A DNA stretch of 63,243 bases, counting the filler, from Hausera hauseri (Eukaryota), in the NCBI GenBank assembly GCA_046269625.1. It is 12 parts of 12 records of this genome, joined end to end, with 100 filler letters (N's around TTAATTAATTAA, not from the genome) between each part and the next. Parts side by side here need not be neighbours in the genome. Positions count along the whole stretch, not along the records: positions 57,493 to 63,243 come from JBJURY010195303.1; 11 more parts are not named here. One strand, written 5' to 3'. The translations under genes and the position numbers were made by a program. The first letter of the stretch is position 1. Every line of letters begins with the position of its first letter. This document shows positions 31,549 to 63,243 of the stretch, in pieces. The notes under the pieces were generated by a model that was not told the origin of the DNA, ran no database searches, and saw only the letters and a program-made list of their open reading frames with translations.

Positions 31549-34500
31549 TGCTACAACGCCGTCAAAGCGAGGCTTTTCAAAACTTATGACGACTTTGTTG
31601 ATAATGCGACTACAAAAAGGGAAACATCTAGCAATATCAGCTCGCACGAGAGGAAACCAAGGGCGTGCAGGAGTAATTTAAAAGTGCCGGGAAATAATTG
31701 TGATCAACGGTGTCTACAGGACAACCCTTCGGATTCTAAGCCACAGCTCCACCAGAGTGTAGGCTGTCGAAAATCAAAGAGTTCAAGTGACCTCGATTCA
31801 AAGTCTAATTTCAAAGACAACAATAGCTATCAAATAAAAAGTCAGGAAGGCACCATCGTTTGCGAAGGTAGTCCTCTGGATATACTGGACACTCTAGTTG
31901 ATGACAAAATCAAAATGCTTCTTGATAAAGTAATTGAGAAATGGTCCCCGAACAAGCATAAAAGTTCTCGACTACCAGAAACCAAAACCAACAACGAAAG
32001 TGCGGACAGAAATGACATGTCGAGGCACTACGGCTCGTCCTTGTCCTCGGAAGAACACCACAGCATGTCAAGTCAGTCAGTTAGTTCCGAAGCTATGACT
32101 GAAAAATCACTGACTGAAGAGAGCGTTGTTATCTTATCTGTACCGACCGGTTCCGGCTGCGCGCGCAAGAAAAAGATATCTGTTGAACTGACAAAACAAC
32201 AAAATGAAAAACTGATGGATTGGATCAGCAGGTCGGTGCCTGAAATGTCTAGATTAAAGCCGGATCCTAGTCAACATAAAAATAAATATATTGTGTCGAT
32301 TAAGAGGAAGAGAGTGGTCTCTGAAACCAGAGGTCGCTGCAAGAATAAACGGAGATTCAGAGAAGAGGCGAAGTCGTCCGACAGTGCTAATATTACGAAC
32401 AGTGCCAATAACTGCTGTGAAAAGGGGGCATCGAGAAACAGCAATGACGCGAAGACTTCCATGTCTGGGTGTCGCTGGCCACTCATTTCTTTCACTTCGA
32501 AGCTGCAAAACTCTCCGAGCCGAAATACGTGTCAATCACCAGTCTTAAGAAATGCTTCTAGAACTTCCAGGTCACGTCGTCAATGTCCGACACGAAAACC
32601 TAGTTCAGAAAACAGGAGGAGGTCATCAAATAAACATGTCTCCACTCCGCAACAAAAACGTAGTAAGAAACGCGCTAGTTCTACTCCAGGAAGGAGAACA
32701 GCCAAGCGCAGGGTAAATCAAAATACATCTCCTTTGAAATCCCCAAAGTCGAGAAGTGGCGAGACGGAATCGACCTTGAACAATAAATATGAAGACAAAG
32801 AAATATCTGATAAATGCGCCATGAAAACTGTTAATTCGTTTGCAAGCAGCGGGATCTCCAGAATCGCAAGAGCCCTGAACAACTTTCATAAGCCCGAGTG
32901 CAATCAAATCCGCGTGCACCACGATGCACCATGTAGTGCAACTCCACTTGGACACTGTGACTCGGTTATGAGTGAAGCGAAACTCCGTTGTAGTGTGGGT
33001 AATACCGAACACCTTAAATGGCATGCTGCACCAACGGAAAATGAGGAAGATAGCCTTGCTGGATGTGACGATTTCGAAACCTCTTTTCTGACGCCAATAA
33101 AAGAGGAATCTCACTCCTGTGGAAACAACAGCTCTGACAAGTCCAGGTCAGATTTCGAAGACTTCGTTAAGAAATGTAGAAGAAAACTGTTGGGAATAAG
33201 GGAAGAAGAGTCAATCTGGCACAAGGACAGCCGTTGTGTATCCAATACTGCAAACAGCCACTCATGTTCTCATCACCGAGCGACATCGACTTCAGAGGAT
33301 CGTGACACGCTGGAGGACTCCGATTTAGCCGTTAATAGGGCAGGCTGCTACGTAAGAAGGCATCAGGACAACTGCTGCGTCCATCATGAAGAGAATGCTG
33401 AAAACGTTACGCTGGAGCCCAGGTTAATGAATAACAAGCACCACCAACATGTCTTGTTATATTTGCAGCACGTCGGCCCCTACAAGTCGGCATTTCTTCG
33501 TAGTGAGATGAATGATTCAGCCCGGCCCGTAAAAATATCGTCGCGCAAGAATGAACATGACCTTTTAAGGCTGTATGCCACAGGAGGCAACATAAATAAC
33601 TACCTCTGTAGCTCAAGAGGTAGCCTAACACCTGGGTGGCCATCCAGAAAAAACATCTTGGACTTTAACTGGAGGAAAAGCAACCAGGACCGAGTGTTGG
33701 CACCACCAGACACGTCAGTCTACACCAGATCTGGCGACAGCTACCTCCAGCCCAGACATTTAAGTGCGCCGGAGAGCCAGACCAAACTATTTTCCTCTGT
33801 TTATTCACCGTTCCGGTCTAATTACGGGGATGCGTATCGAAAATGCGTGTCACCACAATTCACTGATTACTCTGAAGTGACCAACAAAGTGAATATCTAC
33901 AAGAACCTTCCTAGGGACGACAGCAAATGCTTGAAATTTACAACAAGCAGGTGGTATTCGGCTGATGCAATCGATATGGGGGTAGGTCAGCATCATGACC
34001 TAATTAGGAGAAATTGGAATGAAAGTGCCAACAACGGAAGCGATGGATCTTCACCGGGTGAGTCCAGCGGAAATGATGAAGCTGAGATAAGAGATGGCGC
34101 CGAAAGAAGTGAGTACCATAGGATGGGCCAACTAAAGGCCAAGCTTCAGGCCGGGGACACGCCATCTGCCTCAAATGACCACTCTGAGAAGGATAAGCCG
34201 CACAGGGCAGCCCGTCTTGGTCATATGACTCAGGACCAGTATTTTAAACAGGTCCAGTACGTTCCCGTGGATGATCCCCACTGTCTGTGTCGCGAGCACG
34301 CTTGCATGTCATACGATTATGGACATCAGAATTACCACATGGCTAGAGTATCGAACTTTGCCGCCAGAAATATAAACGCTAGCGGGAATATGTTTGGCCG
34401 CGGACTGCAGATCAGCGAAGAGCGCATGTCTGTCATGCCGGAACACGACGGCGACAGCGATGAAGAATTTACTTCTGCCACTGAAGAGCTCCCACGATAC

Positions 34501-35811
34501 TCATCTGGTTGTAAAAAAAGGGCGAGGTATAACAGAAACAGCAGCCAGGAAATTGATGATACCTGCAACCACCCTGACTCTATGAGTTATTACATGGGCG
34601 ATGGGCCTTCTGGGCAATTTGATAACTTCGAGGGCATACCTAAAGAGGACATGTTGATTAGCTTATCGCCCGTTGATGGCGATCAAATGATGTACTGTTC
34701 CCATCGTCAGAAGAATAACGCATGTCATAGATCGTCATCAGAGGCGGCTGGGCAGGCAGCATCTACTGGTATGAACAAGCAGTGCAGAAGCGAAGCCGGC
34801 ATTGTCCACCAGCTTGACAAGAACCACATCCTACCCGGGCGCTCGTGTTTCGGCCAGGGAGATATTCTCAACAAGAGAGCCTTTACTCAGTGGTACGTGG
34901 AAGAAGGTGAGAAGTCCCAGCACGGTCAGCGGCGGTCATCGATCAACCCGGCGCCTGGTGAAAAGTGCTCACACAGAGAGCTTTGGGTCACCCCATCAGA
35001 ACACTGCGAAAGCTCCCCAGACGAAGGGGAGCAGGATGACGAGGAGGAGGATAATGATTGTGAAGACGATGAAGATGAAAACGACGACGAGGAAGAGGAT
35101 GGGGAGGAGGTGGATGACGACGACGAGGAGGGAGAGGACGACGAAGAAAACGAAGATGAGGAAGATGAGGAGGAGGAAGTCAATCGTGACATGGCGGTTT
35201 TTGATAGTGGCGAAGATCAGCGTCTTCTTCAGAAGAAACCAATTTGCCTCGATCACCTCAAGGAGAAGAACGCTCAAAACAACTACCAACACGAGAAACC
35301 GCAGGACATGAACGAATCTAAAATTATGGGCAAACGAATCGCGGATATGGATTCCGTAGGCAAGAGACCCACGCGGGTGAGGCCAGTTACCCAAACGAAA
35401 CGATATTCAACGGCAAATAAGCAAGGCTACCACCAAAGCACCGGAGACCACCTGAATAAGCAAAAACTTACCGCGGCCCACGATAAGAATATGCACATCA
35501 AGGCCACAGGAGGTCACCAGCATAAATTCTCTTTGGAGCAAATAAAAGTTCCGGCCATTGAGAAAGAACGCGTTCGTTTCGCCTGCGATGAAAACGGCGA
35601 CTGGGCTGAAATCGGTCGCGGGAGCTACGGTTGCGTCTATCTGGGTCTCTTGGATGGTGTCATCGAAGTGGCCATTAAGGATTTCTACGAGTCCAGCTCG
35701 TGGGATTTAGTCATTCACGAAGCACGGATGCTCATGTTCCTACAAGACACTGGGATCACGCCCAAGTTTTATGGTCTCAGGAGGCGGTTTGACATTAGCA
35801 AACAGCCTAGA
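31549..35811 (+). CDS. Large protein open at both ends: long disordered Ser/Arg-rich region, acidic tract, then a protein kinase N-lobe
   Basis: More than 1400 stop-free codons. Asp/Glu tract at about 35020-35180. IGRGSYGCVY (Gly-rich loop), VAIK, and alphaC Glu in LVIHEARML at the contig end. Confidence 0.85.
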
Positions 35812-39418: not shown

Positions 39419-40431
39419 ATGCCGTCTGAAGTCGCTTTTATACATATCGGTCAGTTTGGTGTGAAGTGTGCCAGTGCACAGTGGGAATTATTATGTCTTG
39501 AACACACTATTAATCCAGATGGACTAAAACATTAACAGATAATGATTTAGCTGACGAACCTGATCGAACGGCAGTATTATTCCAACCAGTAAACCACTGT
39601 AAGTTGAATCCAAGAACGATACTTGTCTATTCAGAGTCCACATGCATAAACGATATTAAAACTGGTGCATATCGAAATATTTTTAGTGGAGAATCAATGA
39701 TTACTAATTGTAAAGATTTCGGTAACAATTTTGCGCCAGGAAGTCTCAATTCTAGTGTACGACTAATAAGATTGTTTCCACTGCGGCTATTTAAACTAGC
39801 TAAAATGACGCATAATTTGGATGCATTTATCGTCATTAACACTATGAGTGGTGGTACGGGATCTGGAGTTGGTGCGTTGATAATGCTGAAATTATCCTTT
39901 GATTACCCCGAAACAAACCAAATACAATTGGCATTATTTCTCAGCCCGATAATGTCTACGGCGATTGTTGAACCATATAATAGCGTATTCCGTAGTCATA
40001 CAACACTAGATACGTGTGATTTGTGTATACTTTTTGATAACGAAGCTCTTTATGATGTTTGTAAATATCTATTGTTCATGAATTCACCTAATTATCCTAA
40101 TCTCAATCGAATAATATCTCTAATGATTAGCTTATCTACAGCATCAGCGCGATTTGAAACAACGATGAATTCTGGTTTGAAAAAAATGCATACAAATTTA
40201 ATACCGTATCGAGGGATGCACCACGCAATAATGAGACATTCTCCAATTCTGCACGCAACACGAATTAAGTATGCCAGTCCATCGATCGAACAAATTGCAA
40301 AACGTGTCTCCTTGAAAGATCACCAAATGACTAAAACTGACTTAAATAAAGGGAAATTCATATTGATTGCTATGAACTATCGCGGTGCAGTTAAGCCTAG
40401 AGATGTCACGATGGCAATTCAGAAATGCTGA
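39419..40431 (+). pseudogene. Highly divergent alpha-tubulin
   Basis: [14 protein letters not shown]...[48 protein letters not shown] and YRGAVKPRDV. Frameshift near 39535 and an early stop. Confidence 0.85.
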
Positions 40432-47342: not shown

Positions 47343-50300
47343 GTGCAAGGAAATAGTGCACAAGTATTTAATGCGCAATTCCATGCAGCGTACGGATATA
47401 ATGCGCAATCCATTGATATCAAGTACTACAGTTATACTTTTAATAGAACTGTATACTATGTATGCTCCAGATGTGAAACGATAAGCAAAACGCATGAAGA
47501 ATTTCAATATCATGCCTACCATCTGGAATATTTTGCAGCAAAATCCAAGAAGCATATATTCCGTTCAAATATGCTATCTTTGCATAATGCTGAAAAATCG
47601 AATAGTCAAAGGTATCCAACATACACCTACTGCACATCAGCAGCACATAATCCGGAGGATTGCCACAGAGTGATGCGGCAATATTATGGGCAGAAATACT
47701 ATGGACTGGACTATTACATATGTCCAGTATGCGAGACTGTGACCGGCGCTGAATAGTCACAGTTCTACACAAACCATAGAGTCAACCTTGCCCACTTCCG
47801 GAGCAAATCGAAGAGGTCTATATTCAGTGCAGTACGTCATGTTGTAGAAGATGTTCCCGCAGATGTTCCAGCAGATGTTCCGCAGATGTTCCAGCAGATG
47901 TCCCCGCAGATGTTCCCGCAGATGTTCCCGCAGATGTTCCCGCAGATGTTCCAGCAGATGTTCCAGCAGATGTTCCCGCAGATGTTCCAGCAGATGTTCT
48001 AGCAGATGTTCCAACAGATATTCCCGCAGATCTTCCAGCAGATGTTCACACAGATGTTCCCGCAGATGTTCCAGTAAATGTTCCAGCAGCCGTTTCCGCA
48101 TCAACAACATCAGCGCAGTGCAGTGGATCTCAGGCGCAGCATATGGATCCATCTGCAAAGCGCAAGAAACAAGGTGCTGCGTCAGCCACTAATGCCCCAC
48201 CTTAAAGTCCGAGGCAGCGGCTTGTTGATTCCTCTGCACTCGGAGGTAAGGTCCGCAAATATATAATTGACGCAACAGGTCAACCAACCCTCAATGAGTT
48301 CCTGGACTATGAAGCAATTTGGCGGAACTCAAGGCCCTTCAAGTCAACCTTAAGTTAAAGGCAGCATACAGTAATGTCGATGGCGAAATATCAAATCGGG
48401 CCTTCAGGACGAAGAATAGGCCGATAATGCAGTCTACCAACATTCAGGAATGGATCAATCAGTAATATACAAAACTTCTCCATGAAGCTGAGGAGAGCCA
48501 CGATAAGGGCAGCGGCTGGGCTCTCATCAGTCAAGCTATTGCTGATTCATGTACACAAGTACAGCCCGATGAAAGGTAGCTCCTATATAGAGCTCCCAGA
48601 GTAGATCCGCAAGAAGAAAGCATGTGTAAATGTGCACAATCAGGACAACATGTGCTTTAAATATGCCATCTTGTCGAAACTCATAGCCGATGAACATAAT
48701 GTCTCGCGGATTTGGTTGCACAATGACCTACGGCATAGCTAAGATTTTGATTGCACCACGTTTCCACCAACTCTGGAGGAAATCAAGAAATTTGCACGAG
48801 TGAACTATATGTCCATTAATATATTTGCAGTGGACGAAATAAATAGTTTCTATCCCTTAAACGTGTGTGAGGTGGAACGTGATGAACATAGGGATCATCT
48901 CATGATAGACGATGGTGATAAGAGCCACAACGTATGGATAAACAATTTCGAACGCCTCGTCAGATTACAAAAAATCATAGAGAAATTACAGTATGCAAAC
49001 GCTGTTTGCCACATTTTAGCGGCGAGGGTGCTGAGGAGAAGCTCAAGAAACATAGGATGTACTGCAATAAAAACTATTGCATCCGGACTGAATTTCCTGA
49101 GGAAGATTATATCGAGTTCCAGGAGTACGAAAAAATACTCAAAGTGCCAGTAGTTATATACTGCGACTTTGAAGCGATCCTCAGACCAGTGCACAGTTGT
49201 AGTCCAAATCCTCAATGGAGTAGCACAACGGCATACCAGCAGCATGAGTTATCATCATACTGTATGTATGCCAAAGGACTCGATGCGGAGCCATTCTTAT
49301 TCAGGGGTCCAAATGCAGCAGCACACTTCATAAAGCGATTGGAGGATGTGGTCCACAAAATTGAAGAGATTCGACAGAAGCATAAAGAAACAAATGTGAT
49401 GTCGTCATCAGAGAAGCGCAATTTGCATATGGCAACATCATGCTACCTATGCAAAGGCCCATTTACAATGGAGAACAGGAAGGTAAGGGTTCATTGCCAT
49501 GTAACCGGCAAATACAGAGGTGCAGCTTGCAACAATTGCAACCTGCGCTGTAAAACCTGTTCACAAGTCCCCGTCATGTTCCACAATCTCAGTGGATATG
49601 ACTCACATTTCATTATTCGTAAATTGGGCAACATGAAGGGTGACATTCAGGTGATCATGAATAGTGAAGAGAAATATATCTCATTTACTAAATATGTGGG
49701 CCACACCAGACTTAATTTATCGACAGTTATCGTTTTATAGCATCGTCACTGGACAGCCTGGTCAAAAATCTACCAGAAAACGAGTTGAAGGAAACGAAGA
49801 AGTTCTTCCCAACAACTTTCGATTTAGGCAAACGGAAGGGTGTTTTCCCCTATGATTATATAACTTCAGCTTCCGGAATGGGCAACACTTCCAGCTAAGA
49901 AAGACTTCTACAGCCAGCTGTCAGACACAGATATCAGTGATACTGATTATGAACACGCACAGAGAGTCTGGCAGACATTCAAATGCAGGACAATTGGAGA
50001 TTATACCGATGTATATCGCCAAACAGACGTGCTGCTGCTCACAGACGTCTTCGAGAGGTTCAGAGACGTTACAGTTGCGAGTCACAAGCTGGATCAGTCT
50101 CATTTCTTTACTGTCCCTGGAATGAGTTGGGCAGCAATGCTCAGATATACGGGTGTCCGGTTGCAAATTCTAAAGGACTATAACATGGTCCTCATGATCG
50201 AGCGAGGAATCAGGGGAGGAATCTGCCAGGCCATTCACAGGTATAGTGAGGCCAACAATACTTATATGGCAGATTATGATGCATTGAAACTATCACAATA

Positions 50301-51507
50301 CGTCACATACCTAGATGCCAACAACCTATATGGCTGGGCAATGAGCAACCCATTACCATACTGCAATTTTCAATGGGATGAGCAGCCGGAGGAGATCAAG
50401 ATCCAGGACCTGTACCCAAATGGAGATGTTGGATACCAATTGGAGGTAGATGTGGAATACCCCAATGATATCCACAAAAGGCATGAACAGCTGCCTTTCC
50501 TCCCAGACAGCAAACAGCCGCCAAACGGAAAATTTAAAAATTGCTCTGTCATATGGAGAACAAAGAGAGATATGTTGCACATTACATTAATCTCCAGCAG
50601 GCGATAAAGAATGGACTCCGCATCACGAAGATCCATCGAAACCTCCGATTCAGTCAATCCAGGTGGCTGCAACCGTATATCGGTTTTAACACAAAGCTGA
50701 GGACAGAAGCGAAAAATGACTTCGAAAAGGACCAGTACAAGTTGAACAACAATAGTATGTTCGGAAAAACAATGGAGAACAATCAGGAACCGAATAAATA
50801 TAGAGCTGGTCTGTGATTGGAAGAAAACGAAAAAACTAATTGCGAAGCCCAACTTTTACAGAAGTATTATATAGGGAGAAAACCTCGTCAGTATCCATAT
50901 GTTCAAGACGAGCATGGAATTCAGTAAGCCCATATATGTTGGCATGTCCATACTGGAAATATCGAAGATACTAATGTATAATTTCCATTATGACATAATA
51001 GTGTCAACATTCAACAAAGGGCTGCAGCTAATATACATGGATACGGACTCTTTCGTGTATCGGATTTAAACGGAGGACATGTATGATGACTTTGCAAGAT
51101 TAGCTGCCCATATGAATACATCAGATTACTCTAAAGAACACAGAAATTATTCTGTGATGAATAAGAAGGTCCTGGGCAAGTTCAAGGACGAAGTCAATGT
51201 AATTATAATATCGAGGTTTGTGGCTTTTCGGTCAAAAATGTACGCCATCGATGTGTGCGGACAAATCAAGAAACGGGCAAAGGGGGAACAAAAATCAACA
51301 CTGGCCAGGAACATAACATTTGATGATTATGTGCGGGTGCTGCGGGATCAATGCAATATAAAGTCCGAAATGAAAAGGATACAGTCCAGAGAACATAAGA
51401 TCAAAACAGTTAAGTTGGTGAAGAAAAGCTTGGACTGGTACGACGACAAGCGACGGATAATTGAGGATGGCATTAGAACACTGCCTCATGGCTACGTGCA
51501 GCTGTAA
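47343..51507 (+). mobile_element. Polinton/Maverick (adintovirus-like) protein-primed DNA polymerase B, decayed, with an N-terminal zinc-finger/repeat region and an endonuclease-VII-like insert
   Basis: GSGW...GSSYIELP; IYCDFEA (ExoI); HCHVTGKYRGAACNNCN; FHNLSGYDSHFII (ExoII); YLDANNLYGWAM (motif A); [14 protein letters not shown] (motif B); YMDTDS (motif C); LGKFKDE. Many frameshifts. Confidence 0.9.
47849..48088 (+). repeat. 12-bp minisatellite (agatgttccmgc), about 20 units, encoding (DVPA)n in one frame
   Basis: Tandem units are directly visible; one 11-bp unit shifts the frame. Confidence 0.92.
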
Positions 51508-57492: not shown

Positions 57493-59960
57493 TTCTTATG
57501 TTTTCTTCAATGACATGTGTCCTGTCAAATATAAATCATATTTGGACATCAAAACTTCAGTTGTAAGTTTTTTGGAATAACTATCAGCTTTCTTCCTTTT
57601 CGCTCATAATATAGAAGGTTTTCAAGGACCTTGTTGTTCAGAACGCAATATGTGTCCATGTCTACGTATATGTTTCTTTAATTGTCGTCCTTTTGGTATT
57701 ATGTCCTTTTCAGCAAATTCTATAATCTGATGGATAATTCTATCCTTTCTTTGTTCGGTTGAGATTTTAATCGCTTTATCCATTATTAGGGCGCGATGGT
57801 TATCTATTATTTCTTCAAGCCGAGGTTTCTTTATTACAGTGATTGCACTTGTTTTGGTCTTTAATCTTGATAGTGCATCGACATGTACATGTTTATTTAC
57901 TGGCTTATACTGGAATAAGATATTGTATCTAGAGATTTCTTCAATCCAACTGTTTAGTCTGCAAGACGGATTATTTTCTCGGCCTTTTAAAGTCGTGACG
58001 GTTTTGTGGTCAGTGACAATTATAATTTTCTGCCCGTACACGTAAACGTTAAAATGTCGAAGCGCTTTTTACGGCTAGTGTTTCTAATTCAGTAACGGAA
58101 TAATATTTCTCGGCCTTCTTCAAGGAACGTCCTCCATAAGCAATTGGGTGTTCTAATTCTTCATCTTCTCTTTTCTGAGCCAATTCATATCCAATTCCTT
58201 CCATGCTGTAATCTGTCTTGATTAAAAATGATAAGTTAAAATATGGGTATCGTAAAACTGATTCGCTTGTTAGTATCTACTTCATTTCGTCAAAAGCTTT
58301 TTGTTCGATATCTACCCATTTCCATTTAATTCCTTTCTTAAGTAGACGATATAAGGGTGCATTTATTTTTGAGTTGTCCGGCACGTAAGTGGCATAATAT
58401 TCGCAAAGACCTAGCCAATGTCTAACTCTTTCTCGTTTTGTGGTTCTATACAATTAGATATTTTGTTCAATAATGATTTATCTGGATTGATCCTCCTTCT
58501 CCAACTATATGGCCAAGGTAGGATATAGCTTTCTGAGCCCATTTACATTTCTTCGGACTTAATTTCAATCTAGCCTGTTCCAGTCGCATCAGTGTATGTT
58601 CGATATCCTTTTGGTGTTCCTCTTCTGTCCTTGACGCTATCATTACATCATACAAGTATGCAAAAGCATAATCTAACCCAAATAACATTTTGTTCATCAT
58701 CCTCGTAAATATGGCCGGTCCGGTAGTAATACCAAGCGGCACGACGTTGAATTCATAAATACCAGTGTGTTTTGAATGCGGTTTTATATCAATCATCGTC
58801 CTCAATTTCTACTTGCCAATGTCCGGATTGTAAATCCAGTGGTAAACCATTTTGCTCCTGAGAGTCTGTCTAGAGCTTCTTTTACTGATGGCAATGGGAA
58901 AGAATCTTTCATCATAAGCTTATTTAATGCTCTGTAGTCAATACAGAATCGATGTTTTGTAATATCCTTCATTTTAACCATGAGAATTGGTGAATATCAA
59001 GATCTATAACTGGGCCTGATTATGTGAGCTTTGAGCATCCGTTCAACTTCCTTTGTTATCTCGGGCCTTAATGAATGAAGTGGAAGGTATCATTTCGGCA
59101 TCTTTTGTTCTTCAAAGTCTATCTCTTCATGTAAACCAGGCTTTTTCTTAAGCGGGATAGTCAATTTTAATGCTTTTGCTAAGCCAATATCTTCGTCGTC
59201 CTTAGCAATAATTGATTTATAGCGAAACAATAGTTCATAAATTCGGCAGTAAGACTCAGGTGAAAATTTCGTTTCGACATGAGGTGGGAATTCGGCATAC
59301 TTATAAGGCTTTTCCTCAATAGTTATAGACGACACTGTATTTCCTAGTAGTATAAGCATAAAACTTGACTAGGGTCGGTGCATTATTTGATATTCTGACT
59401 GGTACACGACCGGAGTGTACTCTTGTCAGTATGTTACTGAGTATTATATTCGGATCTAATGTTTCTTTTGGTTCAAAATATACCGGTTGATCATCTTGTT
59501 GAATTTGCGCATATTTTATCATCTCTGTTCTTGGTGGAATATTTTCATCTACTGGTATCCACACTTCTCCAAATTTTCTATCCTTAGGGTGTTTTACGCC
59601 TTTATTCAATCGGATTTCTATTAATTTTCGTTTGTAAGACAATCGCTATATTTGGTAGTCTTTCCAGTAGATCACATCCTAAAACTACGTCGTCAGTTAA
59701 TTGTTCCATAATTGCAAATTCATGATGGAAAAATTGTCCAACTATTTGAACCTCTGAGTTTCATTTAAACATCGGTTTAGACAATTGGCCAAAGGTTCCT
59801 GTACTTCCTGGATCTTTTGAAGACGGTGGGTGTAATTGTCCTCTTAGCGTTTGGGGTATTGAATCGTTTTTAATGTAAGACATCTCAGAACCTGTATCGA
59901 TAAACGCATAAACTTCGCAGTCTTCAATAATAATTTTGGTAAAGGGTCTTCCCTCTATTA
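57493..59960 (-). mobile_element. Decayed Ty3/Gypsy pol (protease, RT, RNase H, start of the integrase region)
   Basis: AFIDTGSEMS, RFCIDYRALN, GIYEFNVVPLGIT, AYLYDVMIAS, IVTDHK and HVDALSRL. Confidence 0.92.
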
Positions 59961-60362
59961 CTGTTGCAAAACAGTTTGATGCAACTTTTGGGCTTTTAGC
60001 TGCCGATATTGTGTCCGTTGATTCGGATTTCCGAGGAGGATATTACATTTTCTGATAATTATCTTATTTCGCCGTTTGGATATAATCCATTGTTTTAGAT
60101 TATCAATTCTCCCGTTTCATGAGTACTAATTAATGGTTCTCGATTGTTAGTATGTGGTTCATATTCCTTGAATTTTCCCATACCGGTGATCTGATCTCTA
60201 TATTACGAGGTTATATCGAGAAATACAATATTCTGGAGTCATCCACGGGCTGTCGGCAACTCATTTTCCGTAAGGCTCCATAACGTTTCGTACCTTCGTA
60301 GCAGTCTTCTAAACTAATTGTCCTCTTAGATTTCTGTCTGGCATGAGCTCATTGATCGCTTG

Positions 60363-62388
60363 TCAGTCTTCATAGACTGGAGCAGTAGGGGGCAGCATAG
60401 TTAATGGTGGTTTAATGACGGAATACATATTGTGTCTATCTATTCTTGGAAGTACTTCTCCCTTAGGCTCGTCACTTGAATTATTTCTTCGCGTAGTAAG
60501 TTTTGTAATTTTCCGCTTATACAGGAACATAGGTCTTCCTTTTCCTTTGCGATTATAGTAACCGACATGCCGTTCTACGTCCAATTTTCATCTATTCTCC
60601 TCAGTATTTTACATAAAAATCCAGTCAATTTAAATATTTCATATCCATTTATTACTGCTTGGATGACTGCCTTAATCGTTTGTATTGGGAAATATATTGC
60701 TAAAAATCCAGATGCAGCTTGTCCAAAAATTAAGAACTTTCCAAAATTTTGTAGAGTATTTCTGTAGTTACTCGTTGGTAATGGTTTACTCCGAGCAAGG
60801 ATTCCCATTTAGCTTGATAGCGAGTATCATCTACTACAGAGGTCATGGCTCGGTTCAACTCGTGAGTCCGTTGTCGCGGGAAAGCGAGAAATTGTCTGAA
60901 AGCTTCAATTACCTTAGGCCTATATATGCCTTTAGATGAAGTGTCTTGAAATTTGTCGTCTGTAATTCCTTTTGCAAGGTTTGTTCCTGTTAATTTATTT
61001 GAAGGAACAGTGATACCTCCATTTGGCAAGCTAACCCAATCCGTTTCACTACGCCTAAACATGGGTTCTTCTAAGCCTGCTTTACAATTTTTAAGGATTG
61101 TCGGTTCAGTTGCATTGTCTAATAACACTCTAGTAAGCGGCGTGACTAACCTTGGAGTATTCTGGTAAATAACGGGACGTTCCTGTATGCAACGTTTTAC
61201 TTCAACGTTGATTGGTACATCTCTCTTCTAACATTCGTAAGTCAATAGGACTTTAACAGTAACTCGATCAAACTTTCCTTCTCTTATAGGAATTATTGGG
61301 GATGCCAACTCAGGATTAGCATAAATAAGAGCCAATTTCGTCCTCATGATTTTCATATCCAATTTACAATCACTCGTTATCATTTTATGATATAATTCGG
61401 TGATTCCGACTTGTCCTTTGTAATAAAAATAATCATCTCTGTTTTTTAGGTAGTCCTTAATTCGAATATCCTGAGTTTCTAGTTTGTAAGTTTTCGCATT
61501 TATTTCTGTTTCTGCGACGAAGAACGCTTTATAGTTTGTAGCGAACATCACTACTTCACAAGGAGAGATCATTTCCTTTTTAATAAATTTTATTCCATGC
61601 TGGTCAAAGATTAATATAGTAGATGTAGGATGTTCTGATACGTCTTCGCGTGTCCTTGAATTGGTATCAGATATATCTATATATCGTTCTCCGGTAGTTT
61701 CATTAAATTTTAATTCCTTAATTTTTATAAAATTACAGATTCTTCCAGAGGGAGGTTCCCAAATTATAACAGAACTTCTAAAGGCACAGGTTCCGCCTTG
61801 TAAATGACATTTTGGATTCTCGGTATATAGTTTGGTGACGCTATGGAACATTACTTTCTGTACTCGCGTCCCTGATTCATAAAAATCTACGACCACTACG
61901 TTTGATTCTAATTCTTTTCCGGTGTTGTATTCTGCTCCGCTACAATGTCCGTTATGCATGTCTAGCCTTCAAACCACTACGTTATATGCCCTAATTATCT
62001 TCCCTGGTTGTATCTCTAGTTCCATACTATCCCATTTTAATCTTCCTGTTTCCTTGGCCTGTTTACAATAGTGGCGTTCTAAGTTCATCGGAATCGGAGG
62101 GGTTGTTGGTTTGATTACTGAAGAACGTCCGTGCATTAGTCCGCAGTGAAAAATGCTACGAGATCGTCTCAGCATAAATTCCATTCCATCAAATTATATA
62201 AACTCTTGTTGCTGGTACAGAAAATAACTTTTCTCTCTCGTTTCTAACTTGTGCGGCCTGGCAACTTCGCATACTTCTAAATCCATTAGAGAATATTTCT
62301 GCTCTAGTTTAAACGTATCGCAATCGTAGAGAGCAACAGCACCTATTTGCTTTAATAGCATCATCAAGGTAAGTAAGCTGATTAACCA
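60363..62388 (-). pseudogene. Envelope-like class III fusion glycoprotein (chuvirus/Monjiviricetes G-like)
   Basis: Hydrophobic signal WLISLLTLMMLLKQIGAVA then LYDC; IFHCG; GHCSG; CHLQGGTC...IIWEPP...C; C...FATNY; RCIQERPV...VTPLTRVL. C-terminal TM FLIFGQAASGFLAIY. Confidence 0.78.
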
Positions 62389-63243
62389 TTATGATTTGTT
62401 CCTCCGGCCACTACCATCCGTCATTGTCAAATTACGTAACATATCTTCGAGTTTATTATTATTACCGGCCTTTTTATCTCCTTCCTTATCGAATAACCTT
62501 GACCAATTTACTTCACAGGGTAGCTTCCTAGCCGCTCTTCGTGAAAAGCTTGTAGCTCTATTAATTTCGTTTTCTTGACTAGGATTTGTCTTGATGGCCA
62601 AGTATAGCAATACTTTTCTTAGCTCTTCTATTGTATTTTCCACCATGATTTTCTCGGCTACTGCTTCATCGATTAAGTTACTTTTTGATAGCTTAAAACG
62701 TAAACTTCTCGTCATTCTGACTGCACTAAATATCTCTTTCTCTTTATCGTCCAACGAGTCGCCTCGGAGGCTGGAATAATTTACGATTCGTATTAAATTC
62801 TTAATTAATTAACTCAGTTCTTCATTGTTTGTGCTAAAGGGAGGGATCGACATCTATCTCCATTCTTTAACAATTCTTCGTTATAGTCCACGTATTCTTG
62901 AATTTCCCTAGGCCTACCTCCGGGACGTCTCTGTTTCCGAACGGTTGTTGAACTGATACTCAGTGGCACTAAACTTTTGTCGAATTGTTCCTTATCTTCA
63001 TCTGTTTGTAAATACTCAAAATATATAGCAGCGTCTCGGACTCCGATGATTTGTCCTAAGCATTATTCTGTTTTAGCCTTCCGTGTGGCTTCTTTTTTAG
63101 TCTGCTCATCAGCTATTACTACTACTATTCGGTTTGTATCGTGGGATATAATCTCGACATCTATTAGTTGTTCTAATTCGTCTAGTATTCTCCCTCTAAA
63201 ATATAATCTATAGTTTAGCTCGTTTATTTATTAACCATTCTCT
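62389..63243 (-). pseudogene. Unknown decayed ORF whose 3' part is in frame with the env-like gene
   Basis: ORF 62754-62389 is separated from the env signal peptide by one TAA. Further interrupted coding sequence runs to the window end. Confidence 0.5.

Follow-up and report, generated by a model that had tools for sequence, protein, structure and literature searches.

A Hausera hauseri contig that probably holds a decayed Burro-like Gypsy element with a gB-type fusogen between gag and protease

Introduction

In 2019, the giant planarian Gypsy elements Burro/GYPSM1 were described as having an envelope gene (env) placed in frame between their gag and pol, which was called the first such case and the layout was read as proviral (PMC6431247). 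In that description, open reading frame 1 (ORF1) of Burro comprises gag, knuckles, a Ubi2/SUMO-like domain, a BCL2-like domain, a mononegavirus-related env, protease, a dUTPase-like domain, reverse transcriptase (RT), RNase H and integrase. GAG-ENV-POL elements with an env of the herpesvirus glycoprotein B (gB) type are reported from Nematoda, Bryozoa and Platyhelminthes, and they are not monophyletic; the nine flatworm elements include six from Schmidtea, which span 14.5–18 kb (Chary and Hayashi, PMC13524379). Here, we analyzed positions 57493–63243 of a window of 63,243 nucleotides from the Hausera hauseri assembly, the window being the whole stretch of DNA under study. These positions very probably represent a decayed copy, truncated by the contig ends, of a Gypsy long terminal repeat (LTR) retroelement of ~16.8 kb that belongs to the same GAG-ENV-POL, Burro-like kind and encodes a gB-type fusogen between gag and protease, in one frame with both; its host was likely a triclad, and it likely once made enveloped particles.

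The initial annotation of this DNA started from the premise that env genes of this sort lie 3' of pol, which is outdated in view of the elements of PMC6431247 and PMC13524379, whose env stands between gag and pol. The env-before-pol layout is real but already published, and the present high-copy Gypsy family adds to a known kind.

Gene order in the copies of the family

The stretch is an entire 5,751-bp contig (JBJURY010195303.1), both ends of which are assembly cuts. A DNA search of the genome returned 3,142 first-look candidates, and the 40 that were scored were 76–85% identical. The first 20 stretches fetched were all collinear with positions 57493–63243 (20/20), and about 70 were fetched for the landmark map of the family. 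The results showed the order LTR, primer-binding site (PBS), gag capsid, CCHC knuckle, an insert of ~1,280 aa (3.8 kb), env and protease, followed by RT, RNase H, integrase, a second signal, a second anchor, a stop, a region without match, a RING finger and an LTR. Adjacent landmark pairs kept this order in 157 of 158 cases, the sole exception being an internal duplication, and the median landmark distances sum to 16.1 kb with one LTR, giving ~16.8 kb for the whole element. In every copy that spans the junction, env lay upstream of pol (24/24 anchor-to-protease pairs, spaced 793–868 bp apart), and integrase was followed by the second membrane protein in 15/15 copies. Env had been placed upstream of pol in the initial annotation, which looked to other copies for the reverse order or for nesting; neither was seen, and the recovered copies upheld the gene order and located gag and the LTRs.

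The same annotation had reported no recognizable gag or LTR. Both are indeed absent from the stretch, because it is a whole contig cut at both ends, and both are present in other copies. There, gag (PF03732, E 0.002) and the CCHC knuckle (E 1e-5) stand in the same frame as env, with gag 3.8 kb upstream of env and past the contig end of the stretch copy. The LTR is ~750 bp long, is preceded by a purine run and ends ATATAACA; a TGG-type PBS and gag came next at 4/8 LTR ends and unrelated flank at 4/8. The primer may be an Arg tRNA; the one pattern match for a primer tRNA was rejected as a tRNA by ARAGORN and Rfam. Pol has the order protease, RT, RNase H and integrase, with Gypsy-type domains (PF00077, PF17917, PF17919, PF17921). 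The RING matches, which reach E 7e-9, belong to a downstream ORF; the region leading to the RING finger is a single frame with four stops in copy L039, and the N-terminal part of this ORF had no Pfam match.

Head-to-tail tandem elements with one common LTR were found in L018 (1–2300) and L037 (1–2900), the junction order being RING ORF, purine tract, LTR, primer site and gag. There are at least two subfamilies (L038 and L039 versus L042 and L043), between which the downstream ORF is ~65–70% identical at the DNA level and the remainder is common. Some copies (L016, L052 and L054) carry internal deletions.

Reading frame and selection

In L018, gag, knuckle, insert, env and env tail share one frame, which extends over 2,332 codons, contains four stops but no frameshift, and matches PF03732, PF00098 and PF24664 in that order. 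Stop-free frames in L035 include one of 1,340 aa that connects the insert with env and one of 513 aa that contains the env anchor and the protease. The frame was kept between knuckle and insert in 7/8 copies, between insert and env in 22/28, between env and protease in 16/29, and between integrase and the second membrane protein in 12/16. Across the tested junctions no codon was a stop in more than four copies, and between env and protease none in more than three. The true end of ORF1 is a stop common to 15/16 copies, which follows the beginning of the second anchor by 58 codons. Because the frame is kept and the only common stop follows the second anchor, ORF1 extends from gag through the second membrane protein; its length of ~4,100 aa was derived from the landmark distances. 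The proposal that env is part of a polyprotein is thus borne out by the single frame across the insert-env and env-protease junctions, and what had been taken for a separate ORF upstream of env is an insert in one gag-insert-env-pol frame with no conserved stop. Likewise, of the distinct Gypsy lineage with ORF1-env-pol order that had been proposed, the placement of env before pol remains, and the order itself is gag-insert-env-pol, in a published kind of element.

Ratios of nonsynonymous to synonymous substitution (dN/dS) were computed pairwise, each copy against one natural copy, and are reported as medians; dS is near saturation where L035 is the yardstick, and the values, although all well under 1, are not strictly comparable between regions. 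The median was 0.04 for the env ectodomain (33 copies; 0.05 for the stretch copy), 0.08 for the ubiquitin-like segment, 0.09 for the domain before env, 0.11 for the insert, 0.12 for RT, 0.14 for gag, 0.15 for the RING region, 0.17 for integrase, 0.19 for the env tail/linker (32 copies), 0.30 for the region between the second anchor and RING, and 0.38 for the second membrane protein. These ratios indicate that every region of the element was under purifying selection, env strongly.

The env gene and pol in the stretch copy

The order noted initially for the minus strand (a coding stretch, a TAA, a signal, a class III glycoprotein, an anchor, protease, RT and RNase H) was seen, together with the start of integrase; all features of the stretch given below lie on this strand. 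The predicted internal hydrophobic signal of env, after which cleavage would occur, spans 62338–62388 and has the same pre-env position in relatives. The ectodomain (60745–62337) is interrupted by three private stops and a terminal frame slip. With the three stops read as X, the env of the stretch copy matched PF24664 (Monjiviricetes_fusion) with E 2.8e-33 over profile positions 8–539 of 653, and two stop-free pieces of it each exceeded the curated Pfam cut-off alone; the match of L018 reached E 6e-56. The membrane-proximal and predicted transmembrane segment lies at 60632–60736 and corresponds to PF24664 positions 551–605 in L035. Twelve of the 13 ectodomain cysteines are at least 90% conserved in an alignment of 117 rows, and when the profile of these 117 aligned relatives was compared with the PDB, herpesvirus gB made up 41 of 46 rows (best E 9e-5). 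By these profile matches, env is a predicted Monjiviricetes/gB-type class III fusogen with a signal and a transmembrane segment.

The TAA at 62389–62391, directly before the signal, had been read as the one in-frame stop. It is damage private to the stretch copy, which has four stops from 62391 to 61230 (62391, 62196, 61971 and 61230), present in 0/34, 0/35, 0/36 and 0/35 of the other copies covering them. The reading frame of the stretch copy also slips near 60745, and overall it changes at least 10 times. A TAA at 60732 was considered as a real stop and rejected, as it occurs in 36/39 copies only as an out-of-frame triplet. The ~400 bp between anchor and protease, described as having no recognizable gag or LTR, belong to an env tail/linker (59950–60631) that is broken in the stretch copy, open in L035 and coding by the frame test and by its dN/dS.

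The aspartic protease follows at 59650–59950, with DTG at 59898–59890 (within 59904–59887); its PF00077 match has E 0.003 here and is stronger in L053 (E 4.6e-6). A conserved, coding spacer between protease and RT (59150–59627) occupies the place that the dUTPase-like domain has in Burro. RT, which is frameshifted, lies at 58470–59146 (PF00078, E 9.9e-20), connection and RNase H at 57865–58460 (PF17917, E 3.4e-8), and the contig-cut start of the integrase zinc-binding domain at 57493–57590, identified by tblastn to a PF17921-positive ORF of L044.

The insert and the domain before env

The C-terminal part of a putative ubiquitin-like domain in the gag-to-env insert lies at 63108–63227, just downstream of the contig end. 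This piece itself gave no ubiquitin match; in other copies the segment matched Pfam Rad60-SLD_2 (E 0.007) and ubiquitin (E 0.056), both weak and below the cut-off, and ubiquitin/ISG15 chains headed its PDB list, again weakly. A basic motif visible in the translation at 62904–62930, which we take to be AT-hook-like, has similar counterparts before env in relatives P0004, P0007, P0012, P0152, P0387 and P0389.

A conserved domain at 62392–62808 (26 copies for the dN/dS given above) directly precedes env, where Burro has its BCL2-like domain. In four relatives, the segment directly before env is Bcl-2-like, and their profile matches Bcl-xL at E 6e-4. The pre-env domain of the present family aligned in register with this profile, but with E 0.046 and a probability of 1%, and when the profile was run against 2,050 ORFs the domain did not rise above background (best E 0.2–0.7). 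The ESM Atlas gave no usable match for the insert or the pre-env domain. MATH, BIR, ankyrin and dUTPase-like domains had no match in the scanned pieces; in Burro, some of them were recognized only with HHpred (PMC6431247).

A second membrane protein after integrase

The protein encoded after integrase consists of a predicted signal, a lumenal part modelled over ~330 residues, and an anchor with a short tail behind it. Modelling from 15 copies (mean predicted local distance difference test score, pLDDT, of 57) showed two to three beta-sandwich domains, the middle one at 70–84. The best PDB matches in Foldseek were tandem FN3 proteins (contactin, gp130 and fibronectin; best E 1.5e-5), and a wide fold search gave cytokine-receptor FN3 domains (best Z 8.3, root-mean-square deviation 2.7 over 88 residues), which is near the tool's 'common' level; fold matches in a viral library were generic beta-sandwich proteins. 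Judging from the model, the protein is likely FN3-like. There was no sequence match in Pfam or the PDB and no significant phmmer match to the relatives, for which a profile search with seven sequences gave weak matches only (E 0.001 and 0.006). A loose pattern picked out a tyrosine motif, presumably a YxxPhi sorting signal, immediately ahead of the stop in 20 of 26 aligned rows.

A signal-plus-anchor pair after integrase is present, with little sequence similarity, in 7/8 relatives that reach that far. On its other strand (46–903, plus), the contig of L057 encodes a divergent (39%) FN3-like membrane protein, representing a second, related family. We did not find a post-integrase FN3-like protein in the literature searched, a weak blank, since the Bcl-2 domain of Burro, which is in print, was equally missed. 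The words 'Bcl', 'fibronectin', 'polyprotein' and 'Burro' do not occur in the main text of PMC13524379.

Relatives and RT phylogeny

A HMMER search with env over 1.84 billion representatives gave 553 matches, the best of which were long polyproteins of ~30% identity; a word-index search of longer proteins with part of env had found nothing. Fourteen of the top 17 env relatives were scanned, and 10 had env before protease in one ORF and none had pol before env. Among four weaker env matches, one had integrase before env and one was BEL-like; the BEL-type relative P0044 shows DUF5641. Three further env-before-pol polyproteins came from an RT search, which was swamped by multi-RT gene models and was used for outgroups only in the tree. 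No named Burro sequence appeared among the results of any search. In the 44-row RT tree, the family shared a side with all nine env-upstream relatives and one N-terminally cut protein (93/95, not starred).

Several aspartic-protease-like domains, up to seven per polyprotein, were seen in P0152, P0387, P0389, P0390, P0007 and P0003, some of which also carry ankyrin repeats or C2H2 fingers. P0002 is a full env-pol polyprotein labelled as a protein of a Flavobacteriaceae metagenome-assembled genome; it is likely animal DNA in a bacterial bin.

Comparison with described elements

Like the present family, Burro has one huge ORF with a gag bearing a CCHC knuckle, a ubiquitin-like domain (putative in the present family), a pre-env domain and an in-frame env, followed by protease, spacer, RT, RNase H and integrase; it also has thousands of copies, ubiquitination-related cargo and a planarian host, comparable with the likely triclad host here (PMC6431247). 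The family differs in size (~16.8 kb with ~750-bp LTRs, versus more than 30 kb with an internal region of up to 25 kb) and in ORF length (~4,100 versus 4,873–5,140 aa). Unlike Burro, it has one knuckle, no MATH, BIR or ankyrin match, and its RING in a separate downstream ORF; its post-integrase membrane protein is not mentioned for Burro in PMC6431247. The family thus falls below the size set for Burro and is filed as Burro-like, within the GAG-ENV-POL group.

The GAG-ENV-POL gB-type errantiviruses of PMC13524379 share the Gypsy pol, the gB-type env and its position between gag and pol. The set described there holds intact elements, whereas all copies seen here are decayed, and the likeness described here is one of layout. 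PMC13524379 cites non-canonical nematode endogenous retroviruses (Sacco et al. 2022, PMID 35550022) with env and pol flipped, an RNA-virus glycoprotein as env and a metavirus backbone; their hosts are nematodes, unlike the likely triclad host here. Anakin and other env-bearing BEL/Pao elements resemble the family in their chuvirus-like, gB-fold glycoprotein, but they belong to another superfamily and are reported to have env after integrase (PMC7642597). The nematode elements of Sacco et al. (2022) reportedly have a continuous gag-env-pro-pol ORF, with accessory genes that differ from those of the present family.

Possible function and alternative explanations

A mechanism can be proposed from the layout. 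Translation would yield one chain, whose internal signal would direct env into the endoplasmic reticulum (ER) for release by signal peptidase. Past the env anchor the chain would be cytosolic again, leaving protease and Pol membrane-tied until cleavage by the element's own protease, and insertion of the FN3-like protein would be directed by the second signal, downstream of integrase. Particles would arise by assembly and budding of Gag at membranes that bear both glycoproteins, and would be fused by env with a further cell or compartment. As proposed for Burro, host ubiquitination and cell death would be tuned by the cargo, which comprises the ubiquitin-like and RING parts and possibly a Bcl-2-like one. 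On this model the element may once have been infectious. We consider it possible, though doubtful, that such elements are two-glycoprotein enveloped retroviruses of invertebrates, in which Pol is preceded by a class III fusogen, and integrase is followed by an FN3-repeat protein that serves for attachment or as a decoy receptor; the polyprotein would thread the ER membrane four times, with a division of labour like that of herpesvirus gB and its partners. The layout would be kept across a wide lineage; a second signal and anchor occur in 7/8 relatives running past integrase. If the FN3-like protein does partner the fusogen in attachment, the entry system would be one undescribed for LTR retroelements in the literature searched.

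The same element, with the same gene order, could have kept env for a non-infectious role, for example to hold particle assembly and Pol at internal membranes or to fuse adjacent host cells. No result here shows particles or transmission, and one frame without a stop or frameshift would give equal Gag, Env and Pol, which is unusual in retroviral expression and for a virus. However, no part of the element is as constrained as the complete ectodomain, cysteines included (dN/dS 0.04), in keeping with a working fusogen, and the same layout in Burro is read as proviral (PMC6431247). On balance we regard a non-infectious role as unlikely.

Much less probable still is a separate ORF1 terminated by the TAA, or translated past it, with env next, gag absent or unrecognizable and a distinct new lineage as the consequence. 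The TAA does stand directly before the signal in the stretch copy, and no gag lies within the stretch, but the codon is a stop in none of the 34 other copies, gag is found 3.8 kb upstream with no change of frame (PF03732, E 0.002; CCHC, E 1e-5) and the layout is published; this reading is ruled out. The same holds for a pair of elements brought together by nesting or deletion, or for an endogenous viral gene of chuvirus origin inserted beside a Gypsy pol, to which we give hardly any credence: fragmentary associations of this sort are common in arthropods (PMC10084718), and L016, L052 and L054 have internal deletions, yet the same junction of 793–868 bp is found in 24/24 copies with the frame open across it in natural copies, another membrane protein follows integrase in 15/15, and divergent relatives have the same order. 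A BEL/Pao (Anakin-like) element with the same order from protease to integrase is just as improbable; chuvirus-type glycoprotein capture is known in BEL/Pao (PMC7642597), but pol matches PF17917, PF17919, PF17921 and PF00077, gag matches PF03732, and no Pao-type family was found in the scanned pieces.

Several points weigh against a decayed, Burro-like GAG-ENV-POL element that made enveloped particles. The gB profile match covers just ~75 positions, and a single-sequence AlphaFold model of env, run without an alignment, had pLDDT 33 and was unusable for the five-domain class III fold, which therefore depends on the profile matches. The pre-env domain had no Bcl-2 match in the PDB, and the protease-RT spacer had no dUTPase match in Pfam or the PDB. 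Layout and size were pieced together from overlapping copies because no fetched contig holds the whole element or both ends of one insertion, and none of the fetched copies is intact or recent, all being decayed. The RT phylogeny suggested by the initial annotation placed the family with its env-upstream relatives, but on a long branch of unsure placement, in a tree without named clade references, Burro or BEL sequences. Finally, the assembly contains COX1 genes of at least seven kinds, from several animals, with bacterial COX1 pieces besides (L077–L086).

Only one COX1 kind was compared with named proteins; it was nearest to triclad planarians (78% best match) and occurs on a 14-kb contig and in a stop-bearing second copy. 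This nuclear-looking second copy suggests that the triclad-like animal is the deeply sequenced one. The host of the family is likely a triclad flatworm (planarian), which we can only infer because the mixed assembly carries COX1 of several animals.

A compact (17 kb) family, probably from another planarian, shows which cargo of the giant env-before-pol elements is core and which is optional. By comparison, the ubiquitin-like domain, the pre-env domain and the second membrane protein appear to be core, and the dN/dS values indicate that the embedded fusogen was strongly constrained.

Other features of the window

Positions 1–4520 of the window are a long degenerate four-base simple repeat with open frames in several phases. 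A 326-aa intronless frame at 4626–5606 (plus strand) had no Pfam match and is prokaryotic or phage-like by eye. The plus strand also holds a 1,420-aa single frame of low complexity at 31549–35810, without a Pfam match, the end of which resembles the start of a protein kinase domain. At 48922–50607 (plus strand), there are fragments of an Endonuclease VII-like protein and a type B DNA polymerase, which we take to be Polinton/Maverick-like. A divergent tubulin lies at 39514–40431 (plus strand), and a CFAP74 exon at 11501–12145 (minus strand).

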